A DNA stretch of 64,000 nucleotides, from NCBI GenBank assembly GCA_018667855.1, contig JABIRL010000002.1:2300-66299 (forward strand), in the 5' to 3' direction. Origin of the DNA: Rhodospirillaceae bacterium (GTDB lineage Bacteria; Pseudomonadota; Alphaproteobacteria; GCA-2731375). Under the pieces are notes generated by a model. The model had not been told where the DNA came from. It did not search any database and worked only from the letters and a program-made list of their open reading frames with translations. Positions 25,481 to 44,437 of the stretch are shown in pieces; the stretch's first letter is position 1, and every line of letters starts with the position of its first letter. The position numbers and the translations under genes are program-made.

Positions 25481-28400
25481 TCAATAGTCGATGGTTTCGA
25501 TGTTCTGGAAGGCGATTTGCGTGCCGTCCTCCAGGGTGATGGTACCGGCGGCATCGTCGCTGAGGGTCTTGGTGCTGCCGTCGTCCGATGTCTCGCTGCC
25601 TGTTGTCAGGCTGACGGTCCAGCCGGAGCCGACCGACGAACTATCGGCATTTTGCAGGGTGATGCTATCGGTCCAGCCACCGGCCGCGCCGCCATCGATG
25701 ATGTCGTTACCATCGCCCTCGCCAACGATGAAGTTATCGCTGCCGGCGCCGCCCGTAAGGGTATCGACCCCGCCCAGACCCTGGAAGGTATCGTTGCCCG
25801 CGTTGCCGGTGAAGACATTGACGTCGCCGTTACCGACCAGCGTATCGGCATAGTCGGAGCCGATCAGATTTTCGATACTGGTCAGGGTATCGCCCGCCGC
25901 ATCACCGCCCGAAGTGGCGCCGGTGTTCAGGTTGACGTTGATGGCGGAGCCAGAGTCGGCATAAGAGCCTGTATCGTTGCCGGCACCGCCCAGCAGGATA
26001 TCGGCGCCCGCGCCGCCCTTCAGGGTATCATCGCCGTCATCACCCGAAAGCGTATCCGCGCCGGCATCGCCGTTCACCGTATCTGCACCCTCGCCACCCG
26101 ACAGGATATCGTCGGCGTCGCCGCCATTCAGGGTATCGTCCCCGGCATCGCCGTACAGGCGATCACTCCCGGCCGCGCCGGAGAGGGTGTCACTGCCCGC
26201 GCCGCCGGAGATGAAGTCCTCGCCGGTCGTGCCGGTATTGGTATCGTCGCCGGAGGTCAAAGTAGCCCGGTCGGTACCGGTGGCACCAGCGGCATACAGA
26301 CCGTCGATGGTAGTTTCCGGCAACTGACTGTCGTAAATCGCGACCTCGGAGATCTTGCCATCGAAGAAATCCGACCCACCGGTGTACGCGCCAACCGACA
26401 CAGCCGTGCTGCCGCCATCGATACCCTCGATGTTGTTGGAATCATCCGCCACCTTGGTGCCATCCAAATAGATCTGCAGACCATCGGCGCCGAAGGTCAC
26501 GGTCAACTGGTACCATGTACCGGCTGAGACAACATTTGTGGCAGTCAAGGTACCGCCGTCGGGGCCGCCCATGGCAACCACGATGTTGCTGCCATCACGA
26601 TCGATATAGAAATCACCAGTGTTGCCGCCGGCCGGATCCCGGCTGACCAAGGTACCAGTGCCCGTGACTGTGTCGGCATTGAACCACAGCTGGATCGTGC
26701 CGTTAGCCTGGTTCCAGGCGGCGGAGTCCGGTATCGCCACGTAGTCGTTGACACCGTCGAAATTATTGCCGGTATTATTGATGTTGGCGAAGGGATCCGT
26801 CGTGTCTAAGTAATCTGTATTATTGGTCCAGGTGCCGTCGCTGCCGCTGATCTGGTCCACGGCGGTGGAATTGGCATCGTCAAGGCGCCAGTAACCCACC
26901 GCGCCGGCGTCCACGACCTCGGCCTGATGGGTATCATCGAATTCAGCCAGATCGTTGACGGTGATCGGCTTGACTTCATCATAGGTCTTGCCGGTGGAAT
27001 CCGTGACCCGGATGGTGATGTTGTGGCTTTGCGTGGTTTCAAAGTCCAGCAACGATCCATCCGCCACGGTGATCTCGCCGGTATTGGCACTGATCGCGAA
27101 ACGGCCGCCGGCATTGTCCGTCAGACTGTAGGTGAAGGTCTCGCCACTGTCCGGATCGACGCCGGCAGCGGTGCCAACCACGGTGCCGTTGGAGGCGTTT
27201 TCATCCACGCCGTCCGCCGTCAGCGTGACGTCGTCCGGTGTATCGGCCACCGGATTGATGTTGACCTTGAAACTGCCCGAGGACTGCGCGGTGTCGGAGC
27301 CGTCCGTCGCCGTCGCGGTTACCGACAGATTGAAATTGGTATCCTGGTCGGGGGGCGGTGTCAGGGTCAGGTTATTCAGTTGGGCCGCCGTGAAGGTCCA
27401 GGAACCGTCGCCATTGTTGGTGCCGGCGGAGAACTTGGAACCCACCGGAACGCCGGAGACGACAACCCCAAGGCTTTCCGAGCCGTCCGTATCGGACAGG
27501 GCCGAGGACAGGCTCAACGAAATCGCCGTATCCTCGCTGCCGGTCACATCGTTGGCGCTCAATGTTGGTGCATCCGCCACCTGGGCGACGGTGACACCGA
27601 CAGTGCTGACGCTCTGCGTAGTGTCCGAACCGTCGGTCGCGGTGGCCGTCACGGTCAGGGAGAAATTGCTGGCATCGTCGCTGGGCGGCGTAATGGTCAG
27701 GTTGGAAAGCTGGGCCGACGTCAGGGTCCAGCTGCCATCCCCGTTGTCGGTGCCGGCTGAAAGGCTTCCGCCCGTCGGCACGCCCGAGATGACCACGGAC
27801 AGACTTTCCGAACTGTCAGCCAGGGACGAGGAGATGCTGAGCGAGATCGCGCTGTCCTCGTTGCCGGAGGCGGCGGACGTGCTCAGGTTGGGCGAATCTG
27901 CCACACCGGCAACTGCAACATCGAGGGTATCAACGGATTGTGCCGTCGAGGAACCATCGGTTGCCGTGGCCGTCACGGTCAGTTGGAAATTGCTGCTGTC
28001 GTTACTGGGGGGCGTCACGGACAGGCCCGACAGTTGGGCCGACGTAAGGGTCCAGCTGCCATCGCCATTATCGGTACCCGCGGACAGGGAGGCCCCCGTC
28101 GGTACACCGGAGATCACCACGGAAAGACTTTCCGAGCTGTCGGCCAGATCAGACGAGATGGAGAGAGCGATGGCGCTGTCCTCGTTGCCGGAACCTGCCG
28201 ATGTGCTCAGGGTTGGCGTATCGGCGACACCGTCCACGGTGACGGCCAGGGTCTGTACGCTGCTGGCGCTGCTGCGATCATCGCTGGCCGTGGCGGTCAC
28301 GGTCAGAGAGAAATCACTGCTGTCATTGCTGGCGGGCGTGATGGACAGGCCCGACAGTTGGGTTGATGTCAGGGTCCAGCTGCCGTCGCCATTGTCGGTA

Positions 28401-31400
28401 CCGGCGGACAGCGCGGCGCCCGTGGGGACACCGGATATCACGACAGACAGGTTCGTGCCGTCAACCAGGGATGAGGCGATATTGAGCGCGATGCCGCTGT
28501 CCTCGTTGCCGCTTGCGGCGGATGCCGACAGGCCGGGCGCCGAAACGTCGACAACTTCGACAACTTCGACAACGGTTTCCTCAACCGTCTCGACAACAGT
28601 TTCTTCAACCGCCTCGACAACAGTTTCCTCGACCGTCTCGACAACGGTCTCTTCAACCGTCGCCGTCCTGGCGGCGGAGGACCTGACGGCGCTCACCGCG
28701 GGTGCGGCCAGGGTCGTCGTGGTGGCCTCGACGGCCGCGTCCGCCGCCGTATCGGGCAGGCTTTCGCTCAGGGTATCGGTCAGACCATCGGTTGCTGTGT
28801 CGGCCAGGGGATCGCCCAGAATGGCGGCCTCTGCTGTTTCGGCGGCCTGTTCGACGACCACTTCGGTCTCGACCACCTCGACGGCCTCTTCCGCCGCGGC
28901 TTCTTCCGCCGCGCCGTCGGCGGCGGTGCCGCTGTTGCCGGACTTGGCCCGCGCCGCATCGGCGCCGGTGGCGCCTGAATCGGCGGCATTTTCCGCCGCC
29001 GCCGCGGTCGCGGCCTGCGCCTCGGACTCTGCCTGGGCCTGAGCCTGTGCTTGTGTCTGGCCGGTCGCGCCGGCTTCGATTGAGGCTTCAGCCGCGGTCA
29101 CCGTGGTCAGGTTACGAACCAGGTCGACCTGATTGGTCTCCGCCGTGGCATCGACCGTGACTTCGGCCGTTTCGATCACTTCACTTTCCGCACCATCGCG
29201 GCTGACTTCCACGTTCATGGCGAAAGCTTCCGACGCGAAGGCAGAAGCCGCGGGAATGGCAATGGCCAAGCCGGCCACCTGCATCACGGTCATGGACCAG
29301 GAACGGTCACCGTTGTCCGAACCTTCGGACAGCTGCACGCCCTCGGGCACACCGGTTATGGTGGTCTCGTAGGTGGAGCCATCGGTCGCGTCGGGGATCA
29401 GCGCTTCCAGATCCAGATTGATCACAATTTCGTCCGAGGCTGACACTTCGCCCGCCTCCGGGGCGACAACCGTGTCCTGCCAGCCACTTTCCATGGCCTG
29501 CTCAACTTCGTCGATGGTCATGGTTTGATCAGCGAATTCAAAGTTCTCGACGTTCCGCACCGTGTCCGTGGAACCGCCTTCACGCAGATCCTCGACCTCA
29601 AGGCCCCGTCGGCCCATGGAGACGTTGTAGTCGGAGGCATTGCCGTCGAACACCGCCGTGTCAACGCCCTGGCCGCCGTCCAGCTTGTCCCTGCCGGTGC
29701 CGCCGTCCAGCAAATCGTCGCTGTCGCCGCCTCTCAGATCGTCGTTGCCGGCGCCGCCGATCAGCGTATCGCCGTCGTCGCCGCCTCTCAACCTGTCCTT
29801 GCCGTCGCCGCCGATCAGAATGTCGGCGCCCGTGCCACCATCAAGGCGGTCATTACCGGTGCCACCATCGAGGGTGTCATCGCCCGTGCCGCCGGACAGT
29901 TTGTCGTTGCCGGTGCCGCCGTCGAGGGCGTCATTGCCCTCGCCACCCGACAATCTATCCCGGCCTTCACCGCCGGCAACAGTGTCGTCACCGGAACCGC
30001 CGTAAACTCTGTCATTGCCGGCGCCGCCGTCGAGGGTATCATCGCCCGATCCACCGCTAACGGTATCACGGCCTTCGCCGCCGGCCACGACGTCATCGCC
30101 GGTACCGCCATAGACCCTGTCGTTGCCTGTGCCGCCATCGATCGTATCGTTGCCGGTACCGCCGTACACCCGGTCGCTGCCGGTGCCGCCGTCGAGCGTA
30201 TCGTTGCCCTCGCCGCCGCTAACGGTATCGCGGCCCGAGCCGCCGGAGACGACGTCGTCGCCCGCGCCGCCGTATACACGGTCGCTGCCGGTGCCGCCGT
30301 CGATCGTATCGTTGCCCTCGCCACCGCTAACGGTATCACGGCCCTCACCGCCACTGATAGAATCGGCGCCGGCGCTGCCCACGATGGCATCACTATCGCC
30401 GCTGCCGGCGATGACATTGGTCACAACCGTGGGTGTTTCATTTTGTGCGGCGCCATTCGTGGATGAGGCCGGAGGTGAGCTCTCTGTCGGCGCCGGATCA
30501 GCCGGCGCGGCTTCCGATGCCGGGGCCTGCTCCACAGGCGCTTCCGCTTCAGCGGACGGTTCCGTGGCGTCAGGAGTCTCTATAGGTGCGGCCTGTTCGG
30601 CGGCCGGGGTTGCCTCGGCAACCGGATCGGCCGGCGCTTCGGCAGGTGTCGCAGCTTCGGCGGCCTGGCCGTTTGATTGGCCATTGCCATTGCCTTGACC
30701 GTTTGCCTGGCCATTACCTTGGCCGCTACCTTGACCATTGGTCTCGGCCGGCGCGGCTTCCGATGCCGGAGCCTGTTCCACAGGCGCTTCCGCTTCAGCG
30801 GACGGTTCCGTGGCGTCGGGCGTCTCTACAGGTGCGGCCTGTTCGGCGGCTGGAGTTTCCTCGGCAACCGGATCGGCCGGCGCTTCGGCAGGTGTCGCAG
30901 CTTCGGCGGCCTGGCCGTTTGATTGGCCATTGCCATTGCCTTGACCGTTTGCCTGGCCATTGCCTTGGCCGTTATTCTGACCATTGGCGTTGCCTTGACC
31001 GTTGTTTTCGGCGGGGGCGGATGCTTCGGAAGTCGGTTCCGTGGCGTCTACTTCCTCCACCGGCGCTTCGGCGGCCTGGCTATTTCCATTGCCATTGGCG
31101 TTCGCGTTCGCGTTGCCGTTGCCATTTCCGTTGCTATTGGCGTTCGCGTTGGCATTGCCGTTTTCCTGGCCATTCGCATTGGCATTTTCAGAGCTATTGC
31201 CGCTGGCATTGTTGCCATTGCCTTGTCCGTTGTTTTCGGCAGGGGCGGACACTTCGGAAGTCGGTTCCGTGGCGTCTACTTCCTCCACCAGCGCTTCGGC
31301 GGCCTGGCTATTTCCATTACCATTAGCGTTCGCGTTACCGTTGCCGTTATTACCATTGGCGTTAGCATTCGCGTTGCCGTTGGCATTTCCGTTGGCATTT

Positions 31401-32479
31401 CCGTTGCCATTGGCGTTCTCGTTGGCATTCGCGTTGGCGTTGCCATTTTCCTCGCCGTTGGAATTTCCGTTGCCGTTGTTGCCGTTGTTGCCATTGGCGT
31501 TCTCATTGGCATTCGCGTTGGCGTTGCCATTTTCCTCGCCGTTGGCATTTCCGTTGCCGTTGTTGCCATTGGCGTTCGCATTGGCGTTGGCGTTGCCATT
31601 TTCCTGGCCGTTGGCATTTCCGTTGCCGTTGTTGCCATTGTTGCCATTGGCGTTCTCATTGGCATTGGCATTGGCGTTGGCGTTGCCGTTTTCCTGGCCG
31701 TTGGCATTTCCGTTGCCGTTGTTGCCATTGGCGTTGGCGTTGGCGTTCGCGTTGGCATTGCCATTTTCCTGGCCGTTGGCATTAGCATTGCCATTGCCAA
31801 CCGTACCGTCAGCCTGCGGCGGAACCGGGCCACCGTTGAAATCAGTCTCTACGGTATTCTGCGCCGCAACGGATTGATCACCAGCAGTGGAGTCAACGGC
31901 TGCTTCGGTTTCAGTGAAATCGGTGACGTCCGGCGTGTATTCCGTTTCAATGTTCTGATCGCTCTCCGCAACCGCGGGCTCCGCCATGGCATCGGATGAG
32001 CTGGCCTCTGTATCGGCTTCCGCTTCCGCGGCCTCTTGTTCACCCGCCTGCGCGGCGTTATTCGATTGACCGGCTTGGGCCGGGCGGGCCTGTGCGGCCG
32101 TCGGCTGGTTCGCCGCCGTCGCATCCACACCCTGCGCCTGCGGCGCCTGGGCAGCGGGCGTCTGGCCGGTGGCCGCCGCATCCGTTGCTTCATTGCCCTC
32201 GGGATCGGCTTCTTGATCCTCGACGTCGGCGTCGGGATCTACCTCAGCACTGTCGGCCTGCTGCTCAATGTCGGCGCGGTCGCTGACCTGGGCGCTTTCC
32301 GATGCTTCGCCCGCACTGGCGACGGTTTGCCAGAATGTTCGACTGGCTTCATCGTCGCGGACCGGACCGTTGTCAGGCGACTGCCCAGCCTCGGCGTTTT
32401 CAGTTTGGACGACTTCTTGTTCTTCGGACGCGTCGCCCTTGCGGAGGATTTGCCGGATAATGTTTGGCATTCTAGCCAT
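25481..32479 (-). CDS. Giant T1SS-secreted RTX surface protein/adhesin (2332 aa): acidic and Asn-rich low-complexity N-terminus, internal RTX block, 4 Ig-like repeats, cadherin-like domain, LamG-like domain, C-terminal RTX block
   Basis: GGxGxDxxx nonapeptides at about 29640-30415 and 25660-26270; [13 protein letters not shown] repeats; [36 protein letters not shown] cadherin motif; [34 protein letters not shown] LamG motif; no N-terminal signal peptide; T1SS adjacent. Confidence 0.9.
27242..28540 (-). repeat. Four tandem Ig-like repeats (107-110 aa, 433 aa total)
   Basis: Unit [17 protein letters not shown].[37 protein letters not shown]...LTVTATA.D....VAD, read four times. Confidence 0.9.
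28550..28660 (-). repeat. VEET/VVET octapeptide tandem repeat
   Basis: [37 protein letters not shown]; about 24-nt period. Confidence 0.85.
29640..30415 (-). repeat. Internal RTX Ca2+-binding nonapeptide array
   Basis: More than 20 GGxGxDxxx units, e.g. [27 protein letters not shown]. Confidence 0.9.
30501..30970 (-). repeat. Two near-identical copies of a 246-bp (82-aa) Ala/Glu/Pro-rich unit
   Basis: gccggcgcggcttccgatgcc begins at 30501 and 30747; encodes [55 protein letters not shown]. Confidence 0.88.
31075..31798 (-). repeat. Asn/Gly/Ala low-complexity repeats
   Basis: (Q/E)[10 protein letters not shown](A/E)NANGNNGNGNANG-type units; main block about 31310-31798, second block about 31075-31235. 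Confidence 0.92.
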
Positions 32480-32725
32480 GGTGTCACCTATTCCTAAAAT
32501 GTTAGACGTTTAGGGATACTGCACTGCGCTCTTCGCAACTTTTTTGTTACTGCATAATGACTCCGAAGGGTAAATAAGTTGTGTCTAAACATGCTTAAAT
32601 TGTTTGGTTAATTTTTCAGCTGATTTTTGGCGTATTCGCCCCGGGAAAATCGGCATACGCCGAAGCGAATAGATCGCGGGACGGCATCCTATATTTCACT
32701 TCCGATATATCAAACCGCAATTTCT

Positions 32726-32767
32726 GTAACCGATTCTTAACCATCCCACTGCACAGTGTTTAACCAT
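32726..32767 (+). promoter_or_regulatory. Candidate CtrA-binding sites in the adhesin/T1SS divergent promoter
   Basis: GTAA-ccgattc-TTAAC (32726-32741; one mismatch to TTAA-N7-TTAAC) and two TTAACCAT 8-mers (32737-32744, 32760-32767). Confidence 0.55.
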
Positions 32768-32888
32768 GCGACAGAATCTCTTTGTCAGCTCATGACGAGA
32801 AATTATGTGGCGGTGTTGATCGAACAAAGAGGCGGACCATTGTTCGATCGCGATTGAAGCGCAGTCAGTAGAGGAAGAGTCCCCGACG

Positions 32889-34607
32889 ATGTCGAAACCG
32901 CAGAGCGACAATGCGCCGCTGCCACGCCTGCGCCCCATGCGTGGATTGCGTATGGAGATGCTTGCCGTCTCCTCTGCCATGAATCTGTTGTCGCTGGCCT
33001 TGCCGATCGTGATCCTGCAAGTCTATGACCGGGTTATTCCGAATGCCGCGAACCAGACCCTGGTGGTCTTTGTCTTTGCCCTGGGCGCGGTGTTGATCAT
33101 CGACGCCATTTTGAGCTACGGCCGTTCCTCGGTGACCGGCTGGGTCGGCGCCCGAACCCAGCATTATCTTGCCTGCGCCGCATTGAGACGCCTGTTTAAA
33201 ACCGATCTGCGCAGTTTCGAGGCAGTGGCCCCCGGCGTCCATATGCAGCGGCTCCGTGCCGTCGACGGGATCAAGACGTTTTATGCCGGCCAAGGTTTAT
33301 TACTTATGGTCGACCTGCCGTTCGCGGCGGTCTTTCTGCTATTGATCGGGTTGATTGCCGGCAAGCTGGTGTTCGTGCCGGCCGCCATCCTGGTGTTGCT
33401 CTCCATTTTTGCGCTGTTCAGCGGGCGGGCGCTGTCCGAATCCCTTAAGAGCCGCGCCATCGGCGATGAACGGCGGCACAATTTCATGATCGAAGTGCTT
33501 TCGAATATCCATACCGTCAAGGCGTTGGGCATGGAGGCCCTTATGGTGCGGCGCCATGAACGCCTGCAAAGCAGCTCGGCCGAAGCCAGCTATCAAGTCA
33601 GCCTGGCCGGCGCCACGGCTCGTAATCTAGGCATGACGTTGTCCCAAGTCACCGCCGTCGCCGTGGGCGCGTTTGGCAGCACCTTGGTGATGGACGGCAC
33701 CTTGACCATGGGCGGCCTTGCGGCCAGCACCATGCTGGCCAGCCGCGCGGCCCAGCCTATGTTGCGATCGCTTGGCATCTGGACCCAGTTTCAGAATGCC
33801 CAGGTCGCCCGCCGGCAGTTCGACGAAATGTTCGCCCTGCCCCAGGAGGCGCGGACGGATGACTCCACCGAGGTCTCGTTCGAGGATCCGATCATCATCA
33901 AGGACCTGAACTTTGGCTACACCGAGGACAAGGAGCCAGTTTATCGCGATCTCGATCTGCGTATCGAATACGGTGAAATCATCGGCATCGCGGGCGCCAA
34001 CGGCTCCGGCAAGTCGACCTTCCTGGGTCTGATGATGGGCGCCCTGGTCCCGGCCGAAGGTCAAGGCCACGTCATGATCGGTGATACCGATATCTGGCGC
34101 ACCGATGCCGCGGCGCTGCGGCGCCACGTCTGCTATCTGCCGCAAAACGCCGTGCTGTTCCAAGGTACGATCATGGACAATCTGACCATGTTCGGCGGCC
34201 AGCATTACGTCGACCGTGCCATGTATTTTGCCGACCGGTTGGGTTTGCACGAAGCGATCGGCAAAATGCCCAAGGGCTATGACACCCCCGTGGAATATCG
34301 CAAGACGACCCGCATACCGGGCGGCGTTCGCCAACGCATCGCCTTGGTCAGGGCGCTGACCATGACGGAGGAGCCCCGCCTGATCCTGTTTGACGAGGCC
34401 TATGTCCAGCTCGACCGCAGCAGTGATGAAAAACTCCACACCCTGCTGCGTGAATATGTCGGCAAATGCACCATGGTCATTGTCAGCCATCGGCCTTCGT
34501 ACATGAATTTGGCTGATCGTGTGCTGGTCGTCCGCAATGGCGAATTGATACCCGCGAGCGGCGGCGCCAGGGAATCAATTGAAAAACTACAAAAGGAATA
34601 TGCCTGA
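32889..34607 (+). CDS. Type I secretion ABC transporter (TMD-NBD, no N-terminal peptidase domain)
   Basis: NLLSLALPIVILQVYDRVIP, DLPF, GANGSGKST, signature IPGGVRQRIAL, LILFDEA, VSHR. Confidence 0.88.
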   Translation: MSKPQSDNAPLPRLRPMRGLRMEMLAVSSAMNLLSLALPIVILQVYDRVIPNAANQTLVVFVFALGAVLIIDAILSYGRSSVTGWVGARTQHYLACAALRRLFKTDLRSFEAVAPGVHMQRLRAVDGIKTFYAGQGLLLMVDLPFAAVFLLLIGLIAGKLVFVPAAILVLLSIFALFSGRALSESLKSRAIGDERRHNFMIEVLSNIHTVKALGMEALMVRRHERLQSSSAEASYQVSLAGATARNLGMTLSQVTAVAVGAFGSTLVMDGTLTMGGLAASTMLASRAAQPMLRSLGIWTQFQNAQVARRQFDEMFALPQEARTDDSTEVSFEDPIIIKDLNFGYTEDKEPVYRDLDLRIEYGEIIGIAGANGSGKSTFLGLMMGALVPAEGQGHVMIGDTDIWRTDAAALRRHVCYLPQNAVLFQGTIMDNLTMFGGQHYVDRAMYFADRLGLHEAIGKMPKGYDTPVEYRKTTRIPGGVRQRIALVRALTMTEEPRLILFDEAYVQLDRSSDEKLHTLLREYVGKCTMVIVSHRPSYMNLADRVLVVRNGELIPASGGARESIEKLQKEYA

Positions 34608-36778
34608 TGTCGGCGGCGGGTCAAAATACCCTGGATCGCCGGCCGCAGTGGCTGGACGGCATGAATGTGCTGGAGGCATTTCGCCGCGGCGGCGCCGGCG
34701 CCTTGTCCGATCTCGGCGCTTGTCTGTTGCGCCTGCTCGAGGCTTTGGAATGGAACGGCAAGGAGCGGCATTTGGCCGAGGCCGTGCCGCATTTCGTGCC
34801 CAACCTCGACCTCAAGGGGTTTCGTGAAACCCTGTCAAACCTGAACCTGAGCACGCGGCCCCTGCGTGTCCGACATGACCGCATCAATGCGAACCTGATG
34901 CCCTGCCTGTTTCTGCCCGACAATCCCGCCGCCCCGATACGCATCGTTGTCAGCGCCGACGAGGATGGATACCGGATTTACGACGGCGCCTATCGCATGT
35001 TCCGGCAATCGTCGGGTAAAGGGCTGCGCGGCACCGCCTACGTGGTCAAGGATATTGATCGGGCAGAGCGGGAAAAACAGCAAAAGAACAGATCCTGGGC
35101 CTCGCCATTGGCTGGCCGTTTTCGCACCCTGATCAGCCAGGTGATCCTGTTGACCTTGCTGTTCAACATCCTCAGCCTGGCCATGCCGCTATTCATGATG
35201 TCGATTTATGACAAGGTCATACCGTCGGCTTCGGTCAATCAATTGTTATTCCTGGTGTCCGGCGTGGCGCTGGCGATCTCTCTTGAAACCGGATTACGCC
35301 GGCTGCGGATCGGGGCCATGGCCTATCTGGCCGGACGCATCGACTATTTGGTGGGGCGTTCGGCATTCGAGCGGATCCTGTTTTTGCCCCTTTCCATGTT
35401 GGAGCATGAGCCCCTTGGCGCCCAATTGGCGCATTTGCAGGAATTTGAATCGCTGCGGGAATTTTTCGCCGGTCCCTTGGGCGAAGCATTGTTGGATCTG
35501 CCGTTCGTCGTGATCTACCTAGTTGTGATTGCGGCCCTTGGCGGGTGGTTGGTTTTGGTGCCCATATGCGCCGGGTTGGCTTACGTTCTCGCGGGCTTGG
35601 CCATTACCGCCATTACCAAGCATTTCGCAGCCGCCGGCAACGAACACAAAGCAGAACAGCAAAAGTTTCTGGTCCAGGCGATATCCGGCATGCGGGCCAT
35701 CAAATTCGCCGGTTCGGAGAAAGTCTGGCTCGAACGCTATCGTGAACTGTCGGCCGCAAGTGCCTTGCGGGAATTCGTCCTGACCCGGCACAGCAACGCC
35801 GTACAAACGGTTTCGCGGGTCATAACCCTTGCTTCCGGCATCGCCTTGATGGGGTTCGGCGCCCTGGGGGTTATGGATGACGGCCTATCCATCGGCGCGC
35901 TAATCGCTTCCATGGCCCTGGTCTGGCGGGCATTGGCGCCACTACAATCGGGTTTCATGACCCTGAACCGGCTGGCGCAGATAAAATCCAGCCTGCGGCA
36001 GATCAATCACCTGATGCGCCTGCCGACAGAGCGCATTCCCGGTCAAGTGCCGTTCAAGCGAGCCTTCAAGGGACGGATTGTTTTCAACAGTGTCGCCCAT
36101 CGCTTTTCAGCCGACGCCGAATTGGCCTTATTAGGTGTCACCTTTTCCATAGAACCGGGCGAGGTGGTGGCGATCACCGGGCCCAATGGCTCGGGCAAGT
36201 CGACCCTGATCAACATTACTGCCGGTCTGTACCGCCCCACCATGGGGGCAATATTGATCGACGGCATCGATGTGCGCCAGGTCGATCCGATTGATTTACG
36301 GCAAAGCGTCGCACTGGCCCCACAGGCGACGGAGCTGACATACGGGACGGTGGCCCAAAATCTGAGGTTGGCGGAGCCCACGGCCAGCGACGAGGACCTG
36401 ATTGAAGCGGCCAAGCTGGCACGGGTCTACGATGGCATCATGCAATTGCCGGAGCAGTTCGAGACACGCTTGAATGAACATGTCCTGACCGAATTGACAG
36501 AGGGCTTCAAACAGAAATTGTCCCTCGCCCGCGCCTATCTGAAAAAATCCCCGATCATGCTGTTCGATGAACCGGGGCAGGCTTTGGACGCGGAAGGTGA
36601 CCAGGCTTTTCTGGCAGCGGTGCAGAAATTGCGCGGCAGCAGCACCATTATCATTGTCACCCATCGGCCGAGCCATATGGAAATCGCCGACCGGCTGTTG
36701 GTCCTGGATGCCGGCCGGTTGCAGTACAACGGCCCGCCCCAGGAAGCCATGGACCGATTGTCCGGAGGCGGACAATGA
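34607..36778 (+). CDS. Type I secretion ABC transporter with N-terminal C39-like domain
   Basis: SDLGACLLRLL N-terminal domain, NILSLAMPLFMMSIYDKV, GPNGSGKST, signature LTEGFKQKLSLARA, MLFDEP, VTHR. Confidence 0.88.
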   Translation: MSAAGQNTLDRRPQWLDGMNVLEAFRRGGAGALSDLGACLLRLLEALEWNGKERHLAEAVPHFVPNLDLKGFRETLSNLNLSTRPLRVRHDRINANLMPCLFLPDNPAAPIRIVVSADEDGYRIYDGAYRMFRQSSGKGLRGTAYVVKDIDRAEREKQQKNRSWASPLAGRFRTLISQVILLTLLFNILSLAMPLFMMSIYDKVIPSASVNQLLFLVSGVALAISLETGLRRLRIGAMAYLAGRIDYLVGRSAFERILFLPLSMLEHEPLGAQLAHLQEFESLREFFAGPLGEALLDLPFVVIYLVVIAALGGWLVLVPICAGLAYVLAGLAITAITKHFAAAGNEHKAEQQKFLVQAISGMRAIKFAGSEKVWLERYRELSAASALREFVLTRHSNAVQTVSRVITLASGIALMGFGALGVMDDGLSIGALIASMALVWRALAPLQSGFMTLNRLAQIKSSLRQINHLMRLPTERIPGQVPFKRAFKGRIVFNSVAHRFSADAELALLGVTFSIEPGEVVAITGPNGSGKSTLINITAGLYRPTMGAILIDGIDVRQVDPIDLRQSVALAPQATELTYGTVAQNLRLAEPTASDEDLIEAAKLARVYDGIMQLPEQFETRLNEHVLTELTEGFKQKLSLARAYLKKSPIMLFDEPGQALDAEGDQAFLAAVQKLRGSSTIIIVTHRPSHMEIADRLLVLDAGRLQYNGPPQEAMDRLSGGGQ

Positions 36779-38139
36779 AACGACAGGATGATATCACCCA
36801 CGCTGCCGGCATGGGCCGGTCCCGTGCAGTACGGGGCGAACAGCTGCGCTTTCTCTCAAAGCCGGAGCTGTTGGAGGAAGTTGGACCACCCCGGTTTCTC
36901 AGATTGGTTTTGTTCTTCCTTGCCCTCACGGTGTTTGGCTCCGGCGCCTGGGCTTCAATAGCGAAAATCAAGGAAACCACCAAGGCCATGGGTGAAGTGG
37001 TTCCCATCGGATCCGTACATGCGATCCAGCATCTGGAGGGCGGCATTATTGCCAGTATCATGGTGTCCGAGGGTGAGTTGGTCGAACAAGGACAGATTCT
37101 GGTCAAGCTCGATCCGACACCGGTTCTAGCCGACCTTGAAGTGATCCGCATTCGACGCGCCGGGTTGCAGCTAAAGGCCGAGAGACTACGCGCCTTCGCC
37201 ACGGGAGAACCGGCTAGATTTCCCAAAGTGGCGGCCCGTTTCACCCATATGGTCTCCGACCAAAAGGCCATACTGGCGCAGAACAGACGGGCGCAGAACA
37301 AGCAGCAGCGCGTCCTGGAGCTTAAGCAGGCGCAACGCAAGGTCGAATTGTCCGTCTTGCGGAAAGAGGCGACGAAACTGCGACGGGAAGTGGCAATCCT
37401 GGTCAAACAGAAAACCATGCAAGAAAGATTGCTGGCCGAAAAACTCGTCTCCAATCTGGTCTACTTCAACACTTTGCGGGAATTCAACACCATCGCCGGT
37501 GAACTGGATGAAGTCGTCGAAAAGGCTCAACGGGCCCGTCGGGCCATCGCCGAGGCGGGCGCGAAAATCGGCGAGATGAATGCCGGCATGCGCGACAAGG
37601 CGCTGGATGAAATGGGCGGCGTACGGGCAGAGTTGACAGAGGTGGAGCAGTCCATCGTGCAGGCCGAGGACAGGGCCCGGCGGTTGGAGATCATGGCACC
37701 CTTGCGCGGCATTGTGCAAGAACTGGCGGTCACCACCGTCGGCAGCGTCATCGCGCCGGGAGCGCCGTTGGCCAAGGTGGTACCGGTGGAGGACGAACTG
37801 ATCGTCGAAGCGCAAATTTCGCCGATCGATGTTGGCCACGTGCAGGTTGGAAAGAAGGCAAAAGTGAAGATCACGACCTTCGATTTTGCCCGTTTCGGCG
37901 CTATCGACGGCGAGGTGGAAAAGATTTCCCCGACCACATTCAAGGATCAGGACGGTACCGTCTATTACAAAGCGGATGTTCGACTGTCGAAAAACTATGT
38001 CGGCGACAAGCCCGGGCGCAATTTGATCCTGCCGGGCATGGTGGCCGAAGTCGATATTCTGGCGGGCGAACGCACCGTGCTGCGTTATCTGCTGCGGCCG
38101 GTCTATCAGTCGCTTGATAGCGCCATGACGGAACGCTGA
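36775..38139 (+). CDS. HlyD-family T1SS membrane fusion protein
   Basis: IQHLEGGII..I.V.EG..V..GQ.L..LD, I.APLRGIVQ, P.DVGHV.VG..A.VKITTFDFARFGAI.G.V..ISP, PGMVAEVDI..GER..L.YLL.P. Confidence 0.93.
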   Translation: MKRQDDITHAAGMGRSRAVRGEQLRFLSKPELLEEVGPPRFLRLVLFFLALTVFGSGAWASIAKIKETTKAMGEVVPIGSVHAIQHLEGGIIASIMVSEGELVEQGQILVKLDPTPVLADLEVIRIRRAGLQLKAERLRAFATGEPARFPKVAARFTHMVSDQKAILAQNRRAQNKQQRVLELKQAQRKVELSVLRKEATKLRREVAILVKQKTMQERLLAEKLVSNLVYFNTLREFNTIAGELDEVVEKAQRARRAIAEAGAKIGEMNAGMRDKALDEMGGVRAELTEVEQSIVQAEDRARRLEIMAPLRGIVQELAVTTVGSVIAPGAPLAKVVPVEDELIVEAQISPIDVGHVQVGKKAKVKITTFDFARFGAIDGEVEKISPTTFKDQDGTVYYKADVRLSKNYVGDKPGRNLILPGMVAEVDILAGERTVLRYLLRPVYQSLDSAMTER

Positions 38140-38155
38140 GGTAGGCCGGCAGAGT

Positions 38156-41071
38156 ATGTACAGTTTCATGGCAAACATGGTGATAAAAGGCGCCGCGCCG
38201 CGCATTGGCAGAAAACTGGCAATCGGATTTCTGGCCGCGGGTTTTCTGAGCGCTTGCGCCGTTACGCCGGAACCCATCGTCGAGGCGGAACGTGCAAACC
38301 GTGTCGTCGCGGATCTTGACATTATCCGCAATGGGCAGTTCAAGCCAACGCAGCCGATCTCTTTATATCATGCCATGGCCCGCGCCGTGGCCTTCAACCT
38401 GCAACATAATGTACGGCAAATTGAACGGGATATCGCGCAGCTGGAGCTGGATCAGGCGAATAAAGAGGGTTATCCGGACGTGGAAGGCAGTGCCGCCTAT
38501 TCCAGGGACGACGCAGTAACCTCCACAGGCACTGATACGAACATCCGCTCGGGCAGCTTCGGCGGCACCTGGAATGTGCTGGACCTGGGCGTCAGCTATG
38601 CCAGGGCGCAACAAAGCGCCGACCGCGTGCTGATTGCCGAGGAGCGCCGGCGCAAGGCTTTGCAGGACATAATCCGCAACGTTCGCCTGGCCTATTGGCG
38701 ATCCGTCGGCGCGCAACAGTTGATGACCCGAATGGTAGCGATTGAACACGAGTTCAGCGCCGCGTTGTCGGAAAGTCGACGACTGGAAGTCAACAGTATA
38801 GAGACCAAACGCCGGACCGTCGGCTTTCGCCGTGGTCTGATCGATACCGTGCGACAGATCATTGCGGCACGGAAGGACTATGGCCGGGCCAAGTTTGAGT
38901 TCGCACAGCTAATTAACATTCAGCCAGGCGTCAGATTCACGCTGCAACCGCCCGAAACCATGCAGGGCATTCCGGCGCTGCCCATGGCGGTCGAGAAGCT
39001 GGAGGCTTTTGCCCTGGAGCAGCGGCCCGAACTGCGGGTCGAGGATTACAACGAACGGATCACCGAATGGGAATCCCGGGAAGCACTTTTCGGTATGTTC
39101 CCCGGTCTGGATCTTGATCTGACCCAAAACTTCAGTTCCGACAAGGGCCTGGTGAACACGACCTGGTCGTCCGTCGGACCCACATTGGGCATGAACCTCT
39201 TCCGTCTGTTCTCGGGTCCCCTACGTATGCAAACCGCCGAGTTGCGCGGTGAGATGGCACGCCGTCAGCGACTGGCCCTTTCCGTTGGCGTGTTGGCCCA
39301 GGTTCACATCGCCTATCACGAGTTTCATGAGGCCAGCTACCAATTCCGCCTGGCGCGGCAAATCTCCCGATCCGATCGGGAACTGAGCAAACTTGCGGTA
39401 TTGGAACGCGATATCACCCAAGGCAATCTATTGGACACTATTGACGTGGCGGCGCGGCAGCTGCGCTCGGAAGTTCAACAGCACCAAGCCTATGTGGAGC
39501 TGCGCCGGTCTCACGGCAACATTCTGCATGCCCTCGGCCTCGACGTCATTGGCAACGATATCCCCTTGAATGATGTTGATCGTCTGCGGACCGCAATCCG
39601 TCAAACGGTGTCGAAGTGGGAGTATCTCACGGAAGAGGACGATCCCAATGACGACGGCACGATTGAAGAACTAGTCGGACAGGTATTGGCGGATGTGCGC
39701 CGGGAATCCGTGATGCCCGTGAAGAGCAAAACTTCAGAGCAGTCCAATATGATGGCGGCAGTTGATTTTGGATTGGCCGACAGCGACCTGAAAGATGTCC
39801 CAGATGCCGCCATCCCCAAGACAACCATGGCGACGGCTGAAACGGATGTCGACCGCAAGGCTGCATTCGATGATCAGTTCGCGGAAGTCCTGACAAGACT
39901 GTCGAAAAACGACCCGAATGAAGAGGCGCCAATGGATCTGGTCCAACCCGCGGCGGCAACATTGGCTGAACTGGATCTATTAGGTGTGTTCGAACCTGAA
40001 CCGAAGCAGGAACTGGGCTTGGATCCGAACCTGTCCGCCGAGCACCTGGATCTCGGTGCCATCGAATATTCAGAAACGCCGCTTATTTCACCGCGCACGA
40101 CAAATTCCACAGCCATGGAGTTGTCGCTGCTGGATGTGGCGCCTCCACTATCCGATGCACCACTCATTGCGCAACCGGACTGGCAAGACTTACCGCCTGA
40201 GCCCGCCCATAAAGGTTCGCGAGAAACCTATGACGCACAGTTCGGTGCGTTTTCCGAGTACCCGCGTGCTCAGGCCCTGCTGGCGGTTTTGCGCGATCTG
40301 CAAATTCCACTGGCCGAGGCAAAGGGCTTCCGAATTTTGAAAAAACGGGATTCGAACCGCAAACAACTGTTTCATGTCCGGCTTGGCTCGTTCCTGAAAA
40401 AATCGGCCGCCTTGCAAGTCTGTAAAGGCTTTAAGGTCCATGGAAAACGTTGCGTCGCCGTGCGCAAGATTGCGGCCACATCGGATGATTTCGAATTTGC
40501 ACCGCACATCGATGCAGGCGAACCGATCACGGAAGCGAAACCCGATCCTACTCCCGGCGCCGTCTCTTCGGACGCGATCTTCATGCCTGAGGCGCCGGCG
40601 GCTTCCGAACAAACGGTGGCGGAGGTCTCGCCAGACCTTGAAAATCATCAACTTGAAAATCACAATGGACAAATTGCTGCCCAGCCGCTGCCGCCACGGC
40701 CCGCGGAGAAGCGCTGGCTGCCCCGTTACGACACACAGTTTGGCGCCTTTTCCGAATACTCCCGTGCCCAGGCATTGCTGGACAGCCTTCAGCAACTACG
40801 GATACCCCACGGCGAATATCAAGATTTCCGCATTGTGACGAAGACATCACCGGGCAAACAGACCCAGTATCACGTCACGTTCGGCTCGTACCTGGGCTGG
40901 TCAGCGGCGGCAAAAGCCTGCAACGGCTTCAAGGCGCAAGGCAAAGGTTGCATCGTTGTACGCCACAAAAGGTCGGAGGCCGCCGTTGTCTCCAACTGCC
41001 ATACCGCCGACAGCTGTGATTTGCCAGACACGATCAGCCTGTATGAACGCCGGCCGCTTTTGACGTTCTAA
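38156..41071 (+). CDS. TolC-family outer membrane lipoprotein with acidic linker and two C-terminal SPOR-like domains (971 aa)
   Basis: Lipobox FLSAC; ISLYHAMARAVAFNL, WNVLDLGVSY.RA.Q, ALEQRPELR, AQVHIAY in the TolC part; two YD.QFGAFSEY.RAQALL...HV.(L/F)GS....AA...C.GFK..GK.C..V units at 40229-40468 and 40727-40969. Confidence 0.85.
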   Translation: MYSFMANMVIKGAAPRIGRKLAIGFLAAGFLSACAVTPEPIVEAERANRVVADLDIIRNGQFKPTQPISLYHAMARAVAFNLQHNVRQIERDIAQLELDQANKEGYPDVEGSAAYSRDDAVTSTGTDTNIRSGSFGGTWNVLDLGVSYARAQQSADRVLIAEERRRKALQDIIRNVRLAYWRSVGAQQLMTRMVAIEHEFSAALSESRRLEVNSIETKRRTVGFRRGLIDTVRQIIAARKDYGRAKFEFAQLINIQPGVRFTLQPPETMQGIPALPMAVEKLEAFALEQRPELRVEDYNERITEWESREALFGMFPGLDLDLTQNFSSDKGLVNTTWSSVGPTLGMNLFRLFSGPLRMQTAELRGEMARRQRLALSVGVLAQVHIAYHEFHEASYQFRLARQISRSDRELSKLAVLERDITQGNLLDTIDVAARQLRSEVQQHQAYVELRRSHGNILHALGLDVIGNDIPLNDVDRLRTAIRQTVSKWEYLTEEDDPNDDGTIEELVGQVLADVRRESVMPVKSKTSEQSNMMAAVDFGLADSDLKDVPDAAIPKTTMATAETDVDRKAAFDDQFAEVLTRLSKNDPNEEAPMDLVQPAAATLAELDLLGVFEPEPKQELGLDPNLSAEHLDLGAIEYSETPLISPRTTNSTAMELSLLDVAPPLSDAPLIAQPDWQDLPPEPAHKGSRETYDAQFGAFSEYPRAQALLAVLRDLQIPLAEAKGFRILKKRDSNRKQLFHVRLGSFLKKSAALQVCKGFKVHGKRCVAVRKIAATSDDFEFAPHIDAGEPITEAKPDPTPGAVSSDAIFMPEAPAASEQTVAEVSPDLENHQLENHNGQIAAQPLPPRPAEKRWLPRYDTQFGAFSEYSRAQALLDSLQQLRIPHGEYQDFRIVTKTSPGKQTQYHVTFGSYLGWSAAAKACNGFKAQGKGCIVVRHKRSEAAVVSNCHTADSCDLPDTISLYERRPLLTF

Positions 41072-41089
41072 AGTGAGACCGGCAAACTG

Positions 41090-41869
41090 CTATTTCTTTT
41101 TGCCTGCCGGTTTTTCCGGTGCGGGCTCGGCCGCTTCCGTGGTTCGCGCGGCGGCGGTCTGACGTTGCGCCATCGGCGTTAGATTGTTGAGCGATTGCAG
41201 ATGAACGTAACAAAGTTCGAGTTCATCCGTTCGCGCCATCTCGGCCAGAGTCTCGCCCGGAAGTGCCTTCAGCTTGTCGCGATTGATGGTTTGAAAACCA
41301 GCCAGCGCCGCCGATTGCCCGTCCGGCAATTGAAATCTGGCCTGTGCCGCCTCCAGCAGCTCAAGTTCCCGCAACCGATTGGCAAACTGCATGGTGCGGT
41401 TAAACTGCGCTTGATACTCGCGGGTAAATTTCAACACGTTTTCCAGATATTGGGTACGCGCGCCCTCTGAATCGAACAGACGCTCGCCTTTACCCTCCTG
41501 ATTGAATCCATTGAACTCCTCGTCGATGCACAGCGTAAATGTGCCGCCGTCCTCGGAGCGTGAAAATACGAACGGGTACCGGCGCAAAAAGGCGGGCACA
41601 TACTTGCCCTGCCAGGCATTATCCTCACCGACAAAAGAATTCTCGCCATCGCGCATGCCGAGAATTACGGATGGAAAAATGGAATCGCCTTCGCCCGCAA
41701 AAATGATGGCGAATTCCGTGGCCGCCGGGATGAATTCGGCGGCCAGCAGAGGCACCGAATTCAAGCCGCGCGCATAAGAATAGTCGGCGCCGGTCTTGAC
41801 CGACCATTCGCCGTGGCGCTCGGTTGAAATCGGCACCGCATCTTCATAAATCATGAGTTGCTTGGGCAT
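41090..41869 (-). CDS. SapC-family protein
   Basis: Y..A..LN.VPLLAAEF..AA.EFAI.F, P..ILG.R.GEN.FV, W.G.YVPAFLRRYPF, LCID, RLFD.EG, L.G...I.R.KL..L; start trimmed to ATG 41869. Confidence 0.82.
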   Translation of the reverse strand: MPKQLMIYEDAVPISTERHGEWSVKTGADYSYARGLNSVPLLAAEFIPAATEFAIIFAGEGDSIFPSVILGMRDGENSFVGEDNAWQGKYVPAFLRRYPFVFSRSEDGGTFTLCIDEEFNGFNQEGKGERLFDSEGARTQYLENVLKFTREYQAQFNRTMQFANRLRELELLEAAQARFQLPDGQSAALAGFQTINRDKLKALPGETLAEMARTDELELCYVHLQSLNNLTPMAQRQTAAARTTEAAEPAPEKPAGKKK

Positions 41870-42080
41870 TCGCATTAATCTCCAAAACGTCAACCTGTTA
41901 GAAGCAAACGGGCCATTGCCCATGTCCTGCGATCTCGAATGACGATCATACGGTTGGGGTATATTTAGGCGAAACTAAGTTGAAATCCGAGTCCAATTTA
42001 ACTCATGCGAGCAGGATAGCAACGGCCGAAGATCGCACCTTTAACCCGGCTGATCAGTCTGCCTGTTTTCCGCATGGCCA

Positions 42081-42902
42081 TCACCGGTTCGGAAAAAACA
42101 GCTGCTGTCCGTTGATTTTGTGAGCAGCGATCGCGGCTTTTCCCGCCGGCGACAACAGCCAGTCGATGAAACGTTGCCCGAGGCGGAATTTGACGTGCGG
42201 GTGGCGCCGGGGCGAGACAAGGATAACGCCGTATTGGTTCCGTAGGTTGCCATCGCCCTGGGAAACGATTTTCAGCCGTTGCTTGTTTCGAAAACTTAGC
42301 CAGGTTCCCCGGTCGCTCAATGTATAGGCATCCATGGCGGCGGCGGTATTCAACGTGGCGCCCATGCCGGAGCCGGTTTCGCGGTACCAGGTCCCGGAAT
42401 GGGCGGCCACATCGACACCGGCTTCCGCCCACAGGGACAACTCCCGCTTATGGGTTCCACTGTCGTCACCCCGGGAGACGAAGGCCTCGCCTTGCTTGGC
42501 GATCAGCTCTAATGCGGCGGTGGCGGTCGTGGCCTTGACCACGCCGGCCGGGTCGCCGGCCGGTCCAATGATGACAAAATCATTGTACATCACGGGATGG
42601 CGCGCGACGCCGAAGCCGGCCGCAACGAAGGCGTCCTCGGACGGCTGATGATGCACCAACAGAACATCGGCATCGCCCTTCCGGGCCAGGCGCAGCGCTG
42701 CGCCGGTGCCTACCGCGACGACACGAACGGAAATGCCCGACGCGGCTTTGAACTTCGGCAAGATCTGATCGAACAGCCCGGAATTTTGGGTCGATGTAGT
42801 CGAGGCGAGCGTAATGAAGGCTTGCTCCGCCGCGCCCTCACCGCCAACTAAAAAAACGACTGCGGCCAGCAAACATCGGAAGAAATAGCGCCGATCATTC
42901 AC
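42081..42902 (-). CDS. tupA: Tungstate ABC transporter substrate-binding protein
   Basis: LASTTSTQNSGL, VAVGTGAAL..A.KGDADVLLVH, MYNDFVIIGP, FVSRGDDSGTH.RE, YTLSDRGTW, L.NQY. Confidence 0.9.
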   Translation of the reverse strand: MNDRRYFFRCLLAAVVFLVGGEGAAEQAFITLASTTSTQNSGLFDQILPKFKAASGISVRVVAVGTGAALRLARKGDADVLLVHHQPSEDAFVAAGFGVARHPVMYNDFVIIGPAGDPAGVVKATTATAALELIAKQGEAFVSRGDDSGTHKRELSLWAEAGVDVAAHSGTWYRETGSGMGATLNTAAAMDAYTLSDRGTWLSFRNKQRLKIVSQGDGNLRNQYGVILVSPRRHPHVKFRLGQRFIDWLLSPAGKAAIAAHKINGQQLFFPNR

Positions 42903-43699: not shown

Positions 43700-44403
43700 G
43701 CCGGACGCCGGACATCGCCAAAATACTTGAACCCATAGGCACCGATGTTGATGCTCAGGGACAGCAGCAGCAGCACAACCCCCAGCCCCAAGGCCAGGGA
43801 CAGATTGCCTTTGCTGGCTTCTAACGTGATCGAAGTGGTCATCACCCTGGTGACATGATCGATATTGCCGCCGACGATCATCACGGCGCCGACTTCCGCG
43901 ACAGCGCGGCCAAATCCCGCAAGCAACGTCGTCACCAACATCACCCGGCCGTCCCACAACAATGCGAAAAGAGCCTGCCTGGGTGAGGCGCCAAGGGACC
44001 GCAGGGCCTCATGATATTCCTGCCACAGGGTTTCGATAACCTCCCGGCTCAGGGAAACAATGATGGGCAGCACCAGGATGATCTGGGCGATGATCATGGC
44101 GGTCGGCGTGAACAGCAAATTCAAGACGCCAAACGGCCCGGATCGGGACAGCATCAAATAAACCACCAGGCCCACCACGACAGGGGGCAAACCCATGAGA
44201 GCGTTGAAAATCACGATCAGAACCCGGCGCCCGGGAAACCGGCCCAAGGCGATCAAGGCGCCGAAGGGTAGCCCCACCACCGCAGCGATCCCGGTCGCCG
44301 TCAGGCTGACCCGCAGCGACAGCCCGATGATTTCCCACAGCTCTGTATCGAGCCGCCATATCATGGAGCCGGCCGACATTATGGCGTGCCAGAATTCATC
44401 CAT
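43696..44403 (-). CDS. tupB: Tungstate ABC transporter permease
   Basis: LSLRVS, NALMGLPPVVVGL, LLFTPTAMIIAQ, FGRAVAEVGAVMIVGGNI..VTRVMTT.I.LE. Confidence 0.9.
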   Translation of the reverse strand: MDEFWHAIMSAGSMIWRLDTELWEIIGLSLRVSLTATGIAAVVGLPFGALIALGRFPGRRVLIVIFNALMGLPPVVVGLVVYLMLSRSGPFGVLNLLFTPTAMIIAQIILVLPIIVSLSREVIETLWQEYHEALRSLGASPRQALFALLWDGRVMLVTTLLAGFGRAVAEVGAVMIVGGNIDHVTRVMTTSITLEASKGNLSLALGLGVVLLLLSLSINIGAYGFKYFGDVRRPA

Positions 44404-44437
44404 GCCTTAATCCCACGCCATCACAGCGGCGTTTATC

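Follow-up and report, generated by a model that had tools for sequence, protein, structure and literature searches.

A probable dedicated type I secretion system with a SPOR-bearing TolC-family channel and a conserved CtrA-type promoter box in an uncultured marine alphaproteobacterium

How might an uncultured marine bacterium export a giant RTX protein through a channel that seems able to hold on to the cell wall by itself, and what might switch such a machine on? This question is raised by a locus in a 64-kb stretch of DNA (hereafter the window, which means the whole stretch) from an uncultured marine Rhodospirillaceae-like genus. An original prediction, made by reading the window alone, had placed here genes for a giant RTX protein, two ATP-binding cassette (ABC) transporters, an HlyD adaptor, a TolC lipoprotein with two SPOR-like domains and a SapC protein. 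Six open reading frames (ORFs) were found within 25481-41923, all of them where the prediction had put them, and domain searches confirmed the identity of each:

25481-32479, minus strand: giant RTX substrate gene, 2332 aa, with HemolysinCabind, Cadherin and Laminin_G_3 Pfam matches
32889-34607, plus strand: ABC1 gene, 572 aa, ABC_membrane and ABC_tran
34607-36778, plus strand: ABC2 gene, 723 aa, ABC_membrane and ABC_tran
36775-38139, plus strand: gene for an HlyD-family periplasmic adaptor of type I secretion, 454 aa, TIGR01843
38156-41071, plus strand: gene for the TolC-SPOR channel lipoprotein, 971 aa, two OEP and two SPOR matches
41090-41923, minus strand: SapC-family gene, convergent with the operon, PF07277 (E 1.5e-67)

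The RTX gene and ABC1 are separated by a spacer of 409 bp, from which the two transcription units diverge. On the plus strand, the genes for ABC1, ABC2, HlyD and the outer-membrane factor (OMF) form a tightly packed operon: ABC1 and ABC2 share nucleotide 34607 (ATGA), ABC2 overlaps HlyD by 4 nt, and a gap of 16 nt separates HlyD from the OMF gene. By these coordinates, the operon genes are translationally coupled. An ABC exporter, an HlyD adaptor, a TolC-family OMF and a substrate with C-terminal RTX repeats were thus all found side by side, in agreement with the proposal that this is a type I secretion system (T1SS) with its own substrate. We conclude that the locus probably encodes a dedicated, atypical four-component T1SS plus its own cargo, with a peptidoglycan-tethered channel and under probable CtrA control. 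The assembly of this genome (G000) is 94% complete, and all relatives compared below are metagenome-assembled genomes (MAGs).

The wall-binding part of this conclusion depends on the channel lipoprotein, which is built as follows:

38156-39700, plus strand: OMF (TolC/OprM-like) part, two OEP matches, 100 bits
38255-38257, plus strand: lipobox Cys34 (...FLSAC34), a cysteine nearly invariant in 50 homologues
39722-40216, plus strand: linker between the OMF part and SPOR domain 1, about 165 aa, acidic, Pro-rich and predicted to be disordered
40223-40465, plus strand: SPOR domain 1 (aa 690-770) with Gln695 and Cys756/Cys766, seen by Pfam and AlphaFold2
40724-40963, plus strand: SPOR domain 2 (aa 857-936) with Cys922/Cys932, seen by Pfam, AlphaFold2 and Foldseek

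The SPOR family (PF05036) matched the channel over two stretches with 64.9 bits against a cut-off of 21 (E 8.5e-18), and in a profile scan of the genome the two domains scored 40.0 and 34.8 bits. The channel was modelled with AlphaFold2 on 50 homologues, and folds were searched with Foldseek against the PDB. The model contains a TolC-type helical barrel with a predicted local distance difference test (pLDDT) score above 90, and this barrel matched TolC, OprM, OprN and related channels with E values of 1e-8 to 1e-6. Residues 523-687 and 782-852 are modelled as disordered. Over most of the first of these linkers pLDDT falls below 50, a short helix at 568-583 being the exception, and its length and sequence differ among homologues. 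The remaining C-terminal part folds into beta-alpha-beta-beta-alpha-beta domains at 692-770 and 857-936 with pLDDT of 80-96. The best Foldseek match of this part was the SPOR domain of Pseudomonas aeruginosa RlpA with denuded glycan (6i09; template-modelling (TM) score 0.76, root-mean-square deviation 2.6 Å), followed by further SPOR matches to Bacillus subtilis CwlC (1x60, TM score 0.70) and DedD, while a sequence search of the SPOR region against the PDB returned no match. The beta-1 glutamine (Q695, in YDAQFGAF) and cysteines C756 and C766 are invariant in a 13-sequence alignment, and the two SPOR1 cysteines are nearly invariant in a 50-sequence alignment; each SPOR copy of this channel has a CX9C pair. 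A hidden Markov model of the SPOR region also found one or two SPOR copies on the TolC ORF in each of 17 related loci. Pfam, the modelled fold and conservation therefore agree on a TolC lipoprotein with two SPOR domains. The genome encodes a separate canonical OMF as well as four other SPOR proteins; given this second OMF, the TolC-SPOR channel is likely to be an extra, dedicated one. In the open literature, we found no report of a TolC-family channel fused to a SPOR domain.

To see how far this gene set is conserved, we turned to the relatives. Among 5.8 billion proteins searched, there were 89 channel homologues. Most of the closer ones carry OEP and SPOR in precomputed Pfam domains, and those all come from metagenomes or MAGs; Saanich Inlet, the Black Sea (150 m) and the Arabian Sea appear in the record titles of relatives. 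Distant channel relatives with 27-35% identity, for example from Terasakiella, Pantoea and Paraburkholderia, are without SPOR, and loci from Trinickia, Magnetococcales and Desulfofustis are also among these distant SPOR-free relatives. Within the same genus, the channel gene is present in 10 of 21 genomes, and in the nine loci of relatives that were examined, ABC1, ABC2, HlyD and TolC-SPOR follow each other in the same order with 70-84% identity. In alphaproteobacterial MAGs of other genera, at 41-55% identity, the order is rearranged to TolC-SPOR, an RTX gene on the opposite strand, and then ABC1-ABC2-HlyD (loci L030, L031, L032, L035, L037, L040 and L063); the RTX gene of these rearranged loci has a homologous cadherin/LamG/RTX C-terminus. 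ABC1 and ABC2 were found together in every related locus examined. The synteny search that the original prediction had proposed thus came out in favour of the substrate, ABC1, ABC2, HlyD and TolC-SPOR as a conserved set and against SapC, to which we return below.

The pump of this system departs from the usual single exporter gene. ABC1 is a T1SS-type half-transporter without an N-terminal domain. ABC2 is an LssB/HlyB-like half-transporter with a C39-like-domain region at aa ~36-165, and it aligns to HlyB residues 49-691. The two are only 25-29% identical to each other, and their best families are T1SS transporters of the LssB, HlyB and PrtD types. Walker A, Walker B (DE) and the H-loop are intact in both. 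The signature motifs are degenerate, reading IPGGVRQR in ABC1 and LTEGFKQK in ABC2 (aligned with the canonical xSGGQKQR) in place of LSGGQ, and these deviations are kept in nine orthologous ABC1/ABC2 pairs down to ~54% identity. The D-loops are also altered in both proteins (signature regions at 34300-34420 and 36490-36600). The complementary domain make-up of the pair is conserved as well. The adaptor is a clear HlyD-family member, with 369.7 bits for TIGR01843 against a cut-off of 208.65. In the Vibrio MARTX T1SS, which also has two ABC proteins, RtxB and RtxE, both were reported to be needed for secretion (PMC3034196).

The putative cargo is a protein of 229 kDa with an isoelectric point of 4.05 and no cysteine. 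Its gene has tandem DNA repeats. The protein contains 13 HemolysinCabind stretches (Pfam, E 1e-72) and 37 G.xGxD nonapeptides, arranged with other segments in this order:

aa 1-65 (nt 32285-32479, minus strand): conserved N-terminal segment, MARMPxIIRQILR ... FWQTxxGAGExSE
aa 216-520: Asn/Gly/Ala-rich low-complexity tract, 37% Asn (from composition)
aa 521-696: two Ala/Pro/Glu-rich repeats (from composition)
aa 697-1010: RTX block 1 (Pfam)
aa 1011-1390: region without recognisable domain
aa 1391-1845: a canonical cadherin domain plus about four bacterial cadherin-like repeats of 108 aa (Cadherin_4, Cadherin_5) (Pfam)
aa 1908-2058: LamG, a lectin-like domain (Pfam)
aa 2065-2260: RTX block 2 (Pfam)
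aa 2261-2332: C-terminal secretion region, a 72-aa tail

T1SS adhesins usually carry their binding modules directly ahead of the C-terminal RTX/signal region. Here, the cadherin-like and LamG modules sit just before RTX block 2 and the C-terminal signal region, and the cargo is best described as a predicted adhesin-like protein that would be exported by the neighbouring T1SS. Its C-terminal part (matches spanning aa 1680-2332) is conserved beside TolC-SPOR in distant loci. We found no acyltransferase gene at the locus, nor any further gene between the flanks, and the lack of an acyltransferase gene argues against a pore-forming toxin. The LapG protease (PF06035) was not found in this genome and Pfam recognised no domain in aa 1-215 or 1011-1400 of the RTX protein; the missing LapG and the domain-free N-terminal 215 residues together indicate that this is not a LapA-type retained adhesin.

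The two ends of the cargo are kept among close relatives, while its middle varies greatly and total sizes range from 144 aa to more than 3100 aa. The motif MARMPxIIRQILR occurs in six substrate genes of five genus genomes, though their middles differ completely (gene starts at L023:4301, L024:629, L027:2185, L029:984, L038:1160 and L038:1668, all on the minus strand). Because the known T1SS signal is C-terminal, a conserved N-terminal tag on the cargo is unexpected. One of these genes, in the genus genome G002, encodes a 144-aa 'mini-substrate', in which the MARRPEFIRQILR N-terminus is joined straight to the C-terminal RTX/signal part and the FWQT..GAGE motif is missing.

We then analysed the 409-bp spacer, for which the original prediction had reported CtrA-like boxes in a shared divergent promoter. 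The full-site (TTAA-N7-TTAAC) and half-site TTAACCAT consensus sequences of CtrA are published (PMC3692519). The spacer holds the following elements:

32726-32741, plus strand: CtrA-type full site with one mismatch, GTAA-N7-TTAAC, 148-163 nt upstream of ABC1
32737-32744, plus strand: TTAACCAT half-site consensus, overlapping the full site
32760-32767, plus strand: second TTAACCAT half-site, present in this genome only and not conserved in relatives
32594-32612: CTTAA-N9-GTTAAT block, 115-133 nt ahead of the RTX start codon; on the strand of the substrate gene its sequence is TTAACCAAA

The boxes are thus present, and the core box is conserved in eight relatives. The two TTAACCAT copies in the spacer are the only ones in the window. 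With a genome-wide rate of 64 per 5.3 Mb, 0.005 copies would be expected in the spacer. A perfect TTAA-N7-TTAA does not occur in the window. When the spacers of the eight relatives were aligned (mean column identity 50%), the AA...TTAAC of [G/T]TAA-N7-TTAAC was the only contiguous invariant block. In four distant loci (L030, L031, L037 and L063), TTAACC[AG]A is kept 97-152 nt upstream of ABC1. The CTTAA-N9-GTTAAT block on the other side is kept in 6 of the 8 aligned spacers, including every aligned locus with a substrate gene directly upstream of ABC1, and is weak or absent in L026 and L029; its spacing is wrong for a second CtrA full site, and we rejected it as such. Scans of the spacer and gene ends for sigma-70 promoters and terminators gave nothing informative.

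A box matters only if a factor reads it, and the genome was therefore searched for a regulon signature, which was judged against spacing controls and not against a fitted model. TTAA-N7-TTAA occurs 38 times, compared with 4-22 times (mean 13) for the other spacings in the range N3-N11. Similarly, [GT]TAA-N7-TTAAC occurs 40 times versus 5-20 times for other spacings. The TTAA-N7-TTAA sites are unique sequences, found in the promoter from which fliX and flgI diverge and ahead of mreB, a secretin gene and a gene for a histidine kinase with three PAS domains. Another perfect box precedes an ORF that resembles the flagellar rod protein FlgB by eye only and has no Pfam match. Two boxes precede the gene of a FecR-domain protein with a long Asn/Ser-rich tail. 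In G000, these perfect boxes are at C57:9422, C221:32597, C188:2071, C300:5907, C280:20528 and C195:9147-9188. The enrichment of the N7 spacing argues for an active CtrA-like factor. Our literature search found no paper on a CtrA-controlled RTX T1SS.

Several points weigh against the conclusion of a wall-tethered T1SS under CtrA control. Both ABC signature motifs are degenerate, and such a pump may not hydrolyse ATP in the normal way. With neither an N-terminal retention module nor LapG, the cargo may simply be released, and a wall anchor would then be less obviously useful. One other Rhodospirillales lineage has an orphan TolC-SPOR gene: no T1SS gene was seen within 10 kb of it. As for the regulator, the full site in the spacer has one mismatch, and among the aligned relatives its upstream half-site is GTAA or TAAA, never TTAA. 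Moreover, this assembly contains no ctrA orthologue (the best match is 38% identical) and no chpT match above the cut-off, and CtrA control in this organism would lean on an assumed assembly gap. The orphan TolC-SPOR genes (10001-12088 in L076, GCA_038116945.1, and 10001-12061 in L077, GCA_041294365.1) share a conserved metabolic neighbourhood with HpaB, cyclase, TauD and MFS genes.

The assumption of a gap can be examined in the relatives. Several genus members encode a CtrA 76% identical to the Caulobacter protein, and ctrA and chpT lie 6-7 kb apart in three of the genomes (G004, G010 and G020). In G000, contig C28 (end 9372) is collinear with the region upstream of ctrA in relatives (L074, G004:C1:178001-196000) and ends ~700 bp before ctrA. 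Since synteny stops at the contig end just before ctrA and chpT belongs to the same missing stretch, one assembly gap would explain both absences. Furthermore, chpT is still present in four genus genomes that were scored as CtrA-negative. In view of the contig end and of these chpT-bearing 'CtrA-less' relatives, we set aside a true loss of CtrA in this genome. Assemblies of this group seem to break repeatedly at ctrA. Most probably, this organism has an active CtrA-type regulator, and one of its putative sites lies in the T1SS spacer.

Taken together, these parts suggest a possible order of events. The divergent promoter region would drive the substrate gene one way and the ABC1-ABC2-HlyD-OMF operon the other way. 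A CtrA-type response regulator would bind [G/T]TAA-N7-TTAAC, so that the system would be switched on with the flagellar and pilus-type genes that share the box. ABC1 and ABC2 would form a heterodimeric exporter, as proposed for MARTX RtxB/RtxE. This exporter would recognise the C-terminal RTX/signal region of the cargo, and the unfolded protein would thread via HlyD and the channel, C-terminus first. Carried on a flexible tail of ~165 residues at the periplasmic end of the channel, the SPOR domains would extend to the sacculus and attach to glycan without stem peptides. Such binding would fix the channel, plus anything still attached to it, to the wall. Glycan of this kind is concentrated where amidases act. 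As denuded glycan is concentrated at constriction sites, the channel might accumulate at the site of division and, as a result, at the new pole. We regard such enrichment at the septum or new pole as possible but doubtful, and a plain mechanical tether as about equally likely.

In the latter case, the SPOR tail would be a general tether with no positional role. It would couple the channel trimer, with its three to six SPOR domains, to the sacculus, where it could stabilise a long-lived complex or bear the load of a lodged adhesin. The long, flexible linker of variable length and the presence of one or two SPOR copies would fit binding by avidity, and the substrate N-terminus that is kept even in the 144-aa mini-substrate hints that the N-terminal end is held at the machine. 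These points make such a tether a tentative possibility, against which stand the specificity of SPOR for a rare form of glycan concentrated at septa, the fact that the usual general anchors are OmpA-like or LysM domains, and the absence of a folded retention module and of LapG/LapD.

The original prediction had gone further and proposed that the channel docks, through its SPOR domains, at the division site or new pole and that CtrA times the system by the cell cycle, so that a polar adhesin or surface-layer protein would be deposited at a set stage. Even with SapC left out and the daughter cell taken as the place of the deposit, this reading seems unlikely as a whole, though parts of it have support. 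Characterised SPOR domains target septal denuded glycan (PMC7901474), and the modelled fold is closest to the RlpA domain that was solved with this very ligand. The conserved CtrA-type box is common to the fliX-flgI and secretin promoters. In polar alphaproteobacteria, the products of flagellar and secretin genes are built at the new pole. GcrA, too, is present in the genome. The timing is opposed by the lack of ctrA in the assembly and by the situation in Rhodospirillales and Rhodobacterales (Rhodospirillum, Magnetospirillum), where CtrA is dispensable and chiefly regulates motility (PMC3692519). For this reason, the box would point to co-regulation with the flagellum, and not necessarily to a cell-cycle stage; 'cell-cycle-regulated' is a weaker inference here than 'co-regulated with motility'. 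The boldest form of this reading would be the first T1SS positioned by the state of the peptidoglycan, in which SPOR capture at the septum and a CtrA-type switch-on with flagellum and pili would lead to an adhesin-extruding channel inherited at the new pole. We consider this form speculative and rather unlikely.

It is also improbable, to a somewhat higher degree, that the cargo is no cell-bound adhesin and instead serves as a surface-layer (S-layer) or matrix protein, or as a released calcium-binding exoprotein. Like RTX S-layer proteins (PMC3034196), it is acidic, free of cysteine and equipped with C-terminal RTX repeats; it has long low-complexity Asn/Gly/Ala and Ala/Pro/Glu tracts, and no retention system was found. 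On the other hand, the cadherin-like repeats and LamG near the C-terminus match the ligand-binding tip of RTX adhesins, and a middle that ranges so widely in length among relatives is unlike that of lattice-forming proteins. The weakest alternative, which we consider quite unlikely, is that the conserved box is bound by another regulator, e.g. a different OmpR-family protein reading direct repeats spaced by 11 bp, and resembles a CtrA site by coincidence: ctrA and chpT were not found in G000, the upstream half-site departs from TTAA, and the genome encodes several other OmpR-family regulators, but the N7 spacing is enriched and placed at classic CtrA targets such as fliX-flgI, the spacer has two perfect TTAACCAT half-sites, a single gap would account for both missing genes, and four CtrA-negative genus genomes keep chpT.

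One part of the original prediction did not hold up, namely that SapC belongs to the system. No SapC gene was present at any related locus searched, and among 41 related genomes just 4 carry such a gene anywhere. The SapC orthologue of the sister genome G004 (78% identical) lies on another contig, between a glycerophosphodiesterase (GDPD) gene and type II secretion (GspL/M/D-like) genes. The T1SS operon of G004 directly abuts the same tungstate-transport/formate-dehydrogenase genes as here, and ~1 kb around SapC (41072-42097 of the window) has no counterpart in this otherwise syntenic flank (L070, G004:C9:136001-156000). Its absence from the relatives' loci and the separate location of the orthologue rule out SapC as a sixth component. 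SapC was named after the Campylobacter fetus sapCDEF locus, where it adjoins T1SS genes, and its usual companions in alpha- and gammaproteobacteria are tryptophan halogenases and TonB receptors (PMC2938197).

The locus is flanked on one side by purine-catabolism genes and a periplasmic binding protein gene, and on the other by genes for a tungstate/molybdate-type ABC importer (PBP_like_2, ABC_tran, BPD_transp_1) and for formate dehydrogenase. The tungstate-transport/formate-dehydrogenase genes are unrelated neighbours. Within 42081-46558 on the minus strand, the importer genes and a long ORF (44438-46558) lead to the formate-dehydrogenase cluster. This stretch is collinear with G004 at 73% nucleotide identity, and the G004 counterpart has polyferredoxin genes.

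T1SS channels are usually treated as freely distributed, shared ducts. If our reading is true, an OMF with its own peptidoglycan recognition would mean that secretion of a giant adhesin is anchored to the wall and possibly aimed within the cell. The TolC-SPOR fusion is conserved across several genera of abundant alphaproteobacteria of oxygen-minimum zones, and it offers a simple, portable test case for SPOR-directed targeting of an outer-membrane protein. The degenerate two-ABC pump is a natural case for studying ATP use by heterodimeric T1SS pumps. The TTAA-N7-TTAA sites together represent a draft CtrA-type regulon for an uncultured lineage in which the role of CtrA is poorly known, and the conserved box in the spacer would add an adhesin exporter to its flagellum/pilus programme. 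Should placement at the septum or new pole also be true, these uncultured marine Rhodospirillales-like bacteria would have a built-in 'swim-and-stick' pole.

How, then, does the locus compare with known systems? The nearest described machine is the Vibrio MARTX T1SS (RtxB, RtxD, RtxE and TolC), which likewise combines two different ABC proteins with one HlyD adaptor, divergent from a very large RTX substrate. However, the order here is ABC1-ABC2-adaptor-OMF and not B-D-E, the OMF is part of the operon and has SPOR domains, RtxC and RtxH genes are absent, and Pfam found no MARTX repeat families. Further differences are the missing N-terminal domain of ABC1, the degenerate signature motifs of both ABC proteins, an alphaproteobacterial host and an adhesin-like cargo. 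With a different substrate, accessory genes and gene order, the locus is, as far as its sequence allows us to judge, not a member of the MARTX group.

The cargo has its closest parallels among LapA/LapBCE-type systems (Pseudomonas LapA, Marinomonas MpIBP, Salmonella SiiE), which also have a giant repetitive RTX protein with ligand-binding modules near the C-terminus, a T1SS signal and a dedicated set of ABC, adaptor and OMF genes next to the cargo gene. In contrast to these systems, there is no LapG here, neither an N-terminal retention module nor a BIg extender was recognised, two ABC proteins are present instead of one, and none of these systems has anything like the SPOR tail of this OMF. 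As the LapA-type retention parts are missing, any retention here would need a different mechanism. The Campylobacter fetus sapCDEF and Caulobacter RsaA/RsaDEF systems resemble the locus in the T1SS export of an acidic, cysteine-free RTX surface protein, as predicted for the cargo here, whereas they have one ABC protein and no SPOR, their cargo architecture differs, and SapC is not conserved with our locus.

The SPOR domains themselves share their fold and the beta-1 glutamine with FtsN, DamX, DedD, RlpA and CwlC, and RlpA, too, is a lipoprotein of the outer membrane that carries SPOR at its C-terminus. Unlike in these proteins, SPOR is fused here to a trimeric secretion channel and not to a divisome or lytic protein, and it occurs in tandem (in this genus), each copy with a CX9C pair. 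Finally, the Legionella LssB/LssD-type transporter (TIGR03375) is the best NCBIfam match for both ABC proteins, yet ABC1 and ABC2 reach only 405 and 485 bits against a cut-off of 693. Both scores are below the cut-off, and the two proteins thus form a divergent, paired subfamily.

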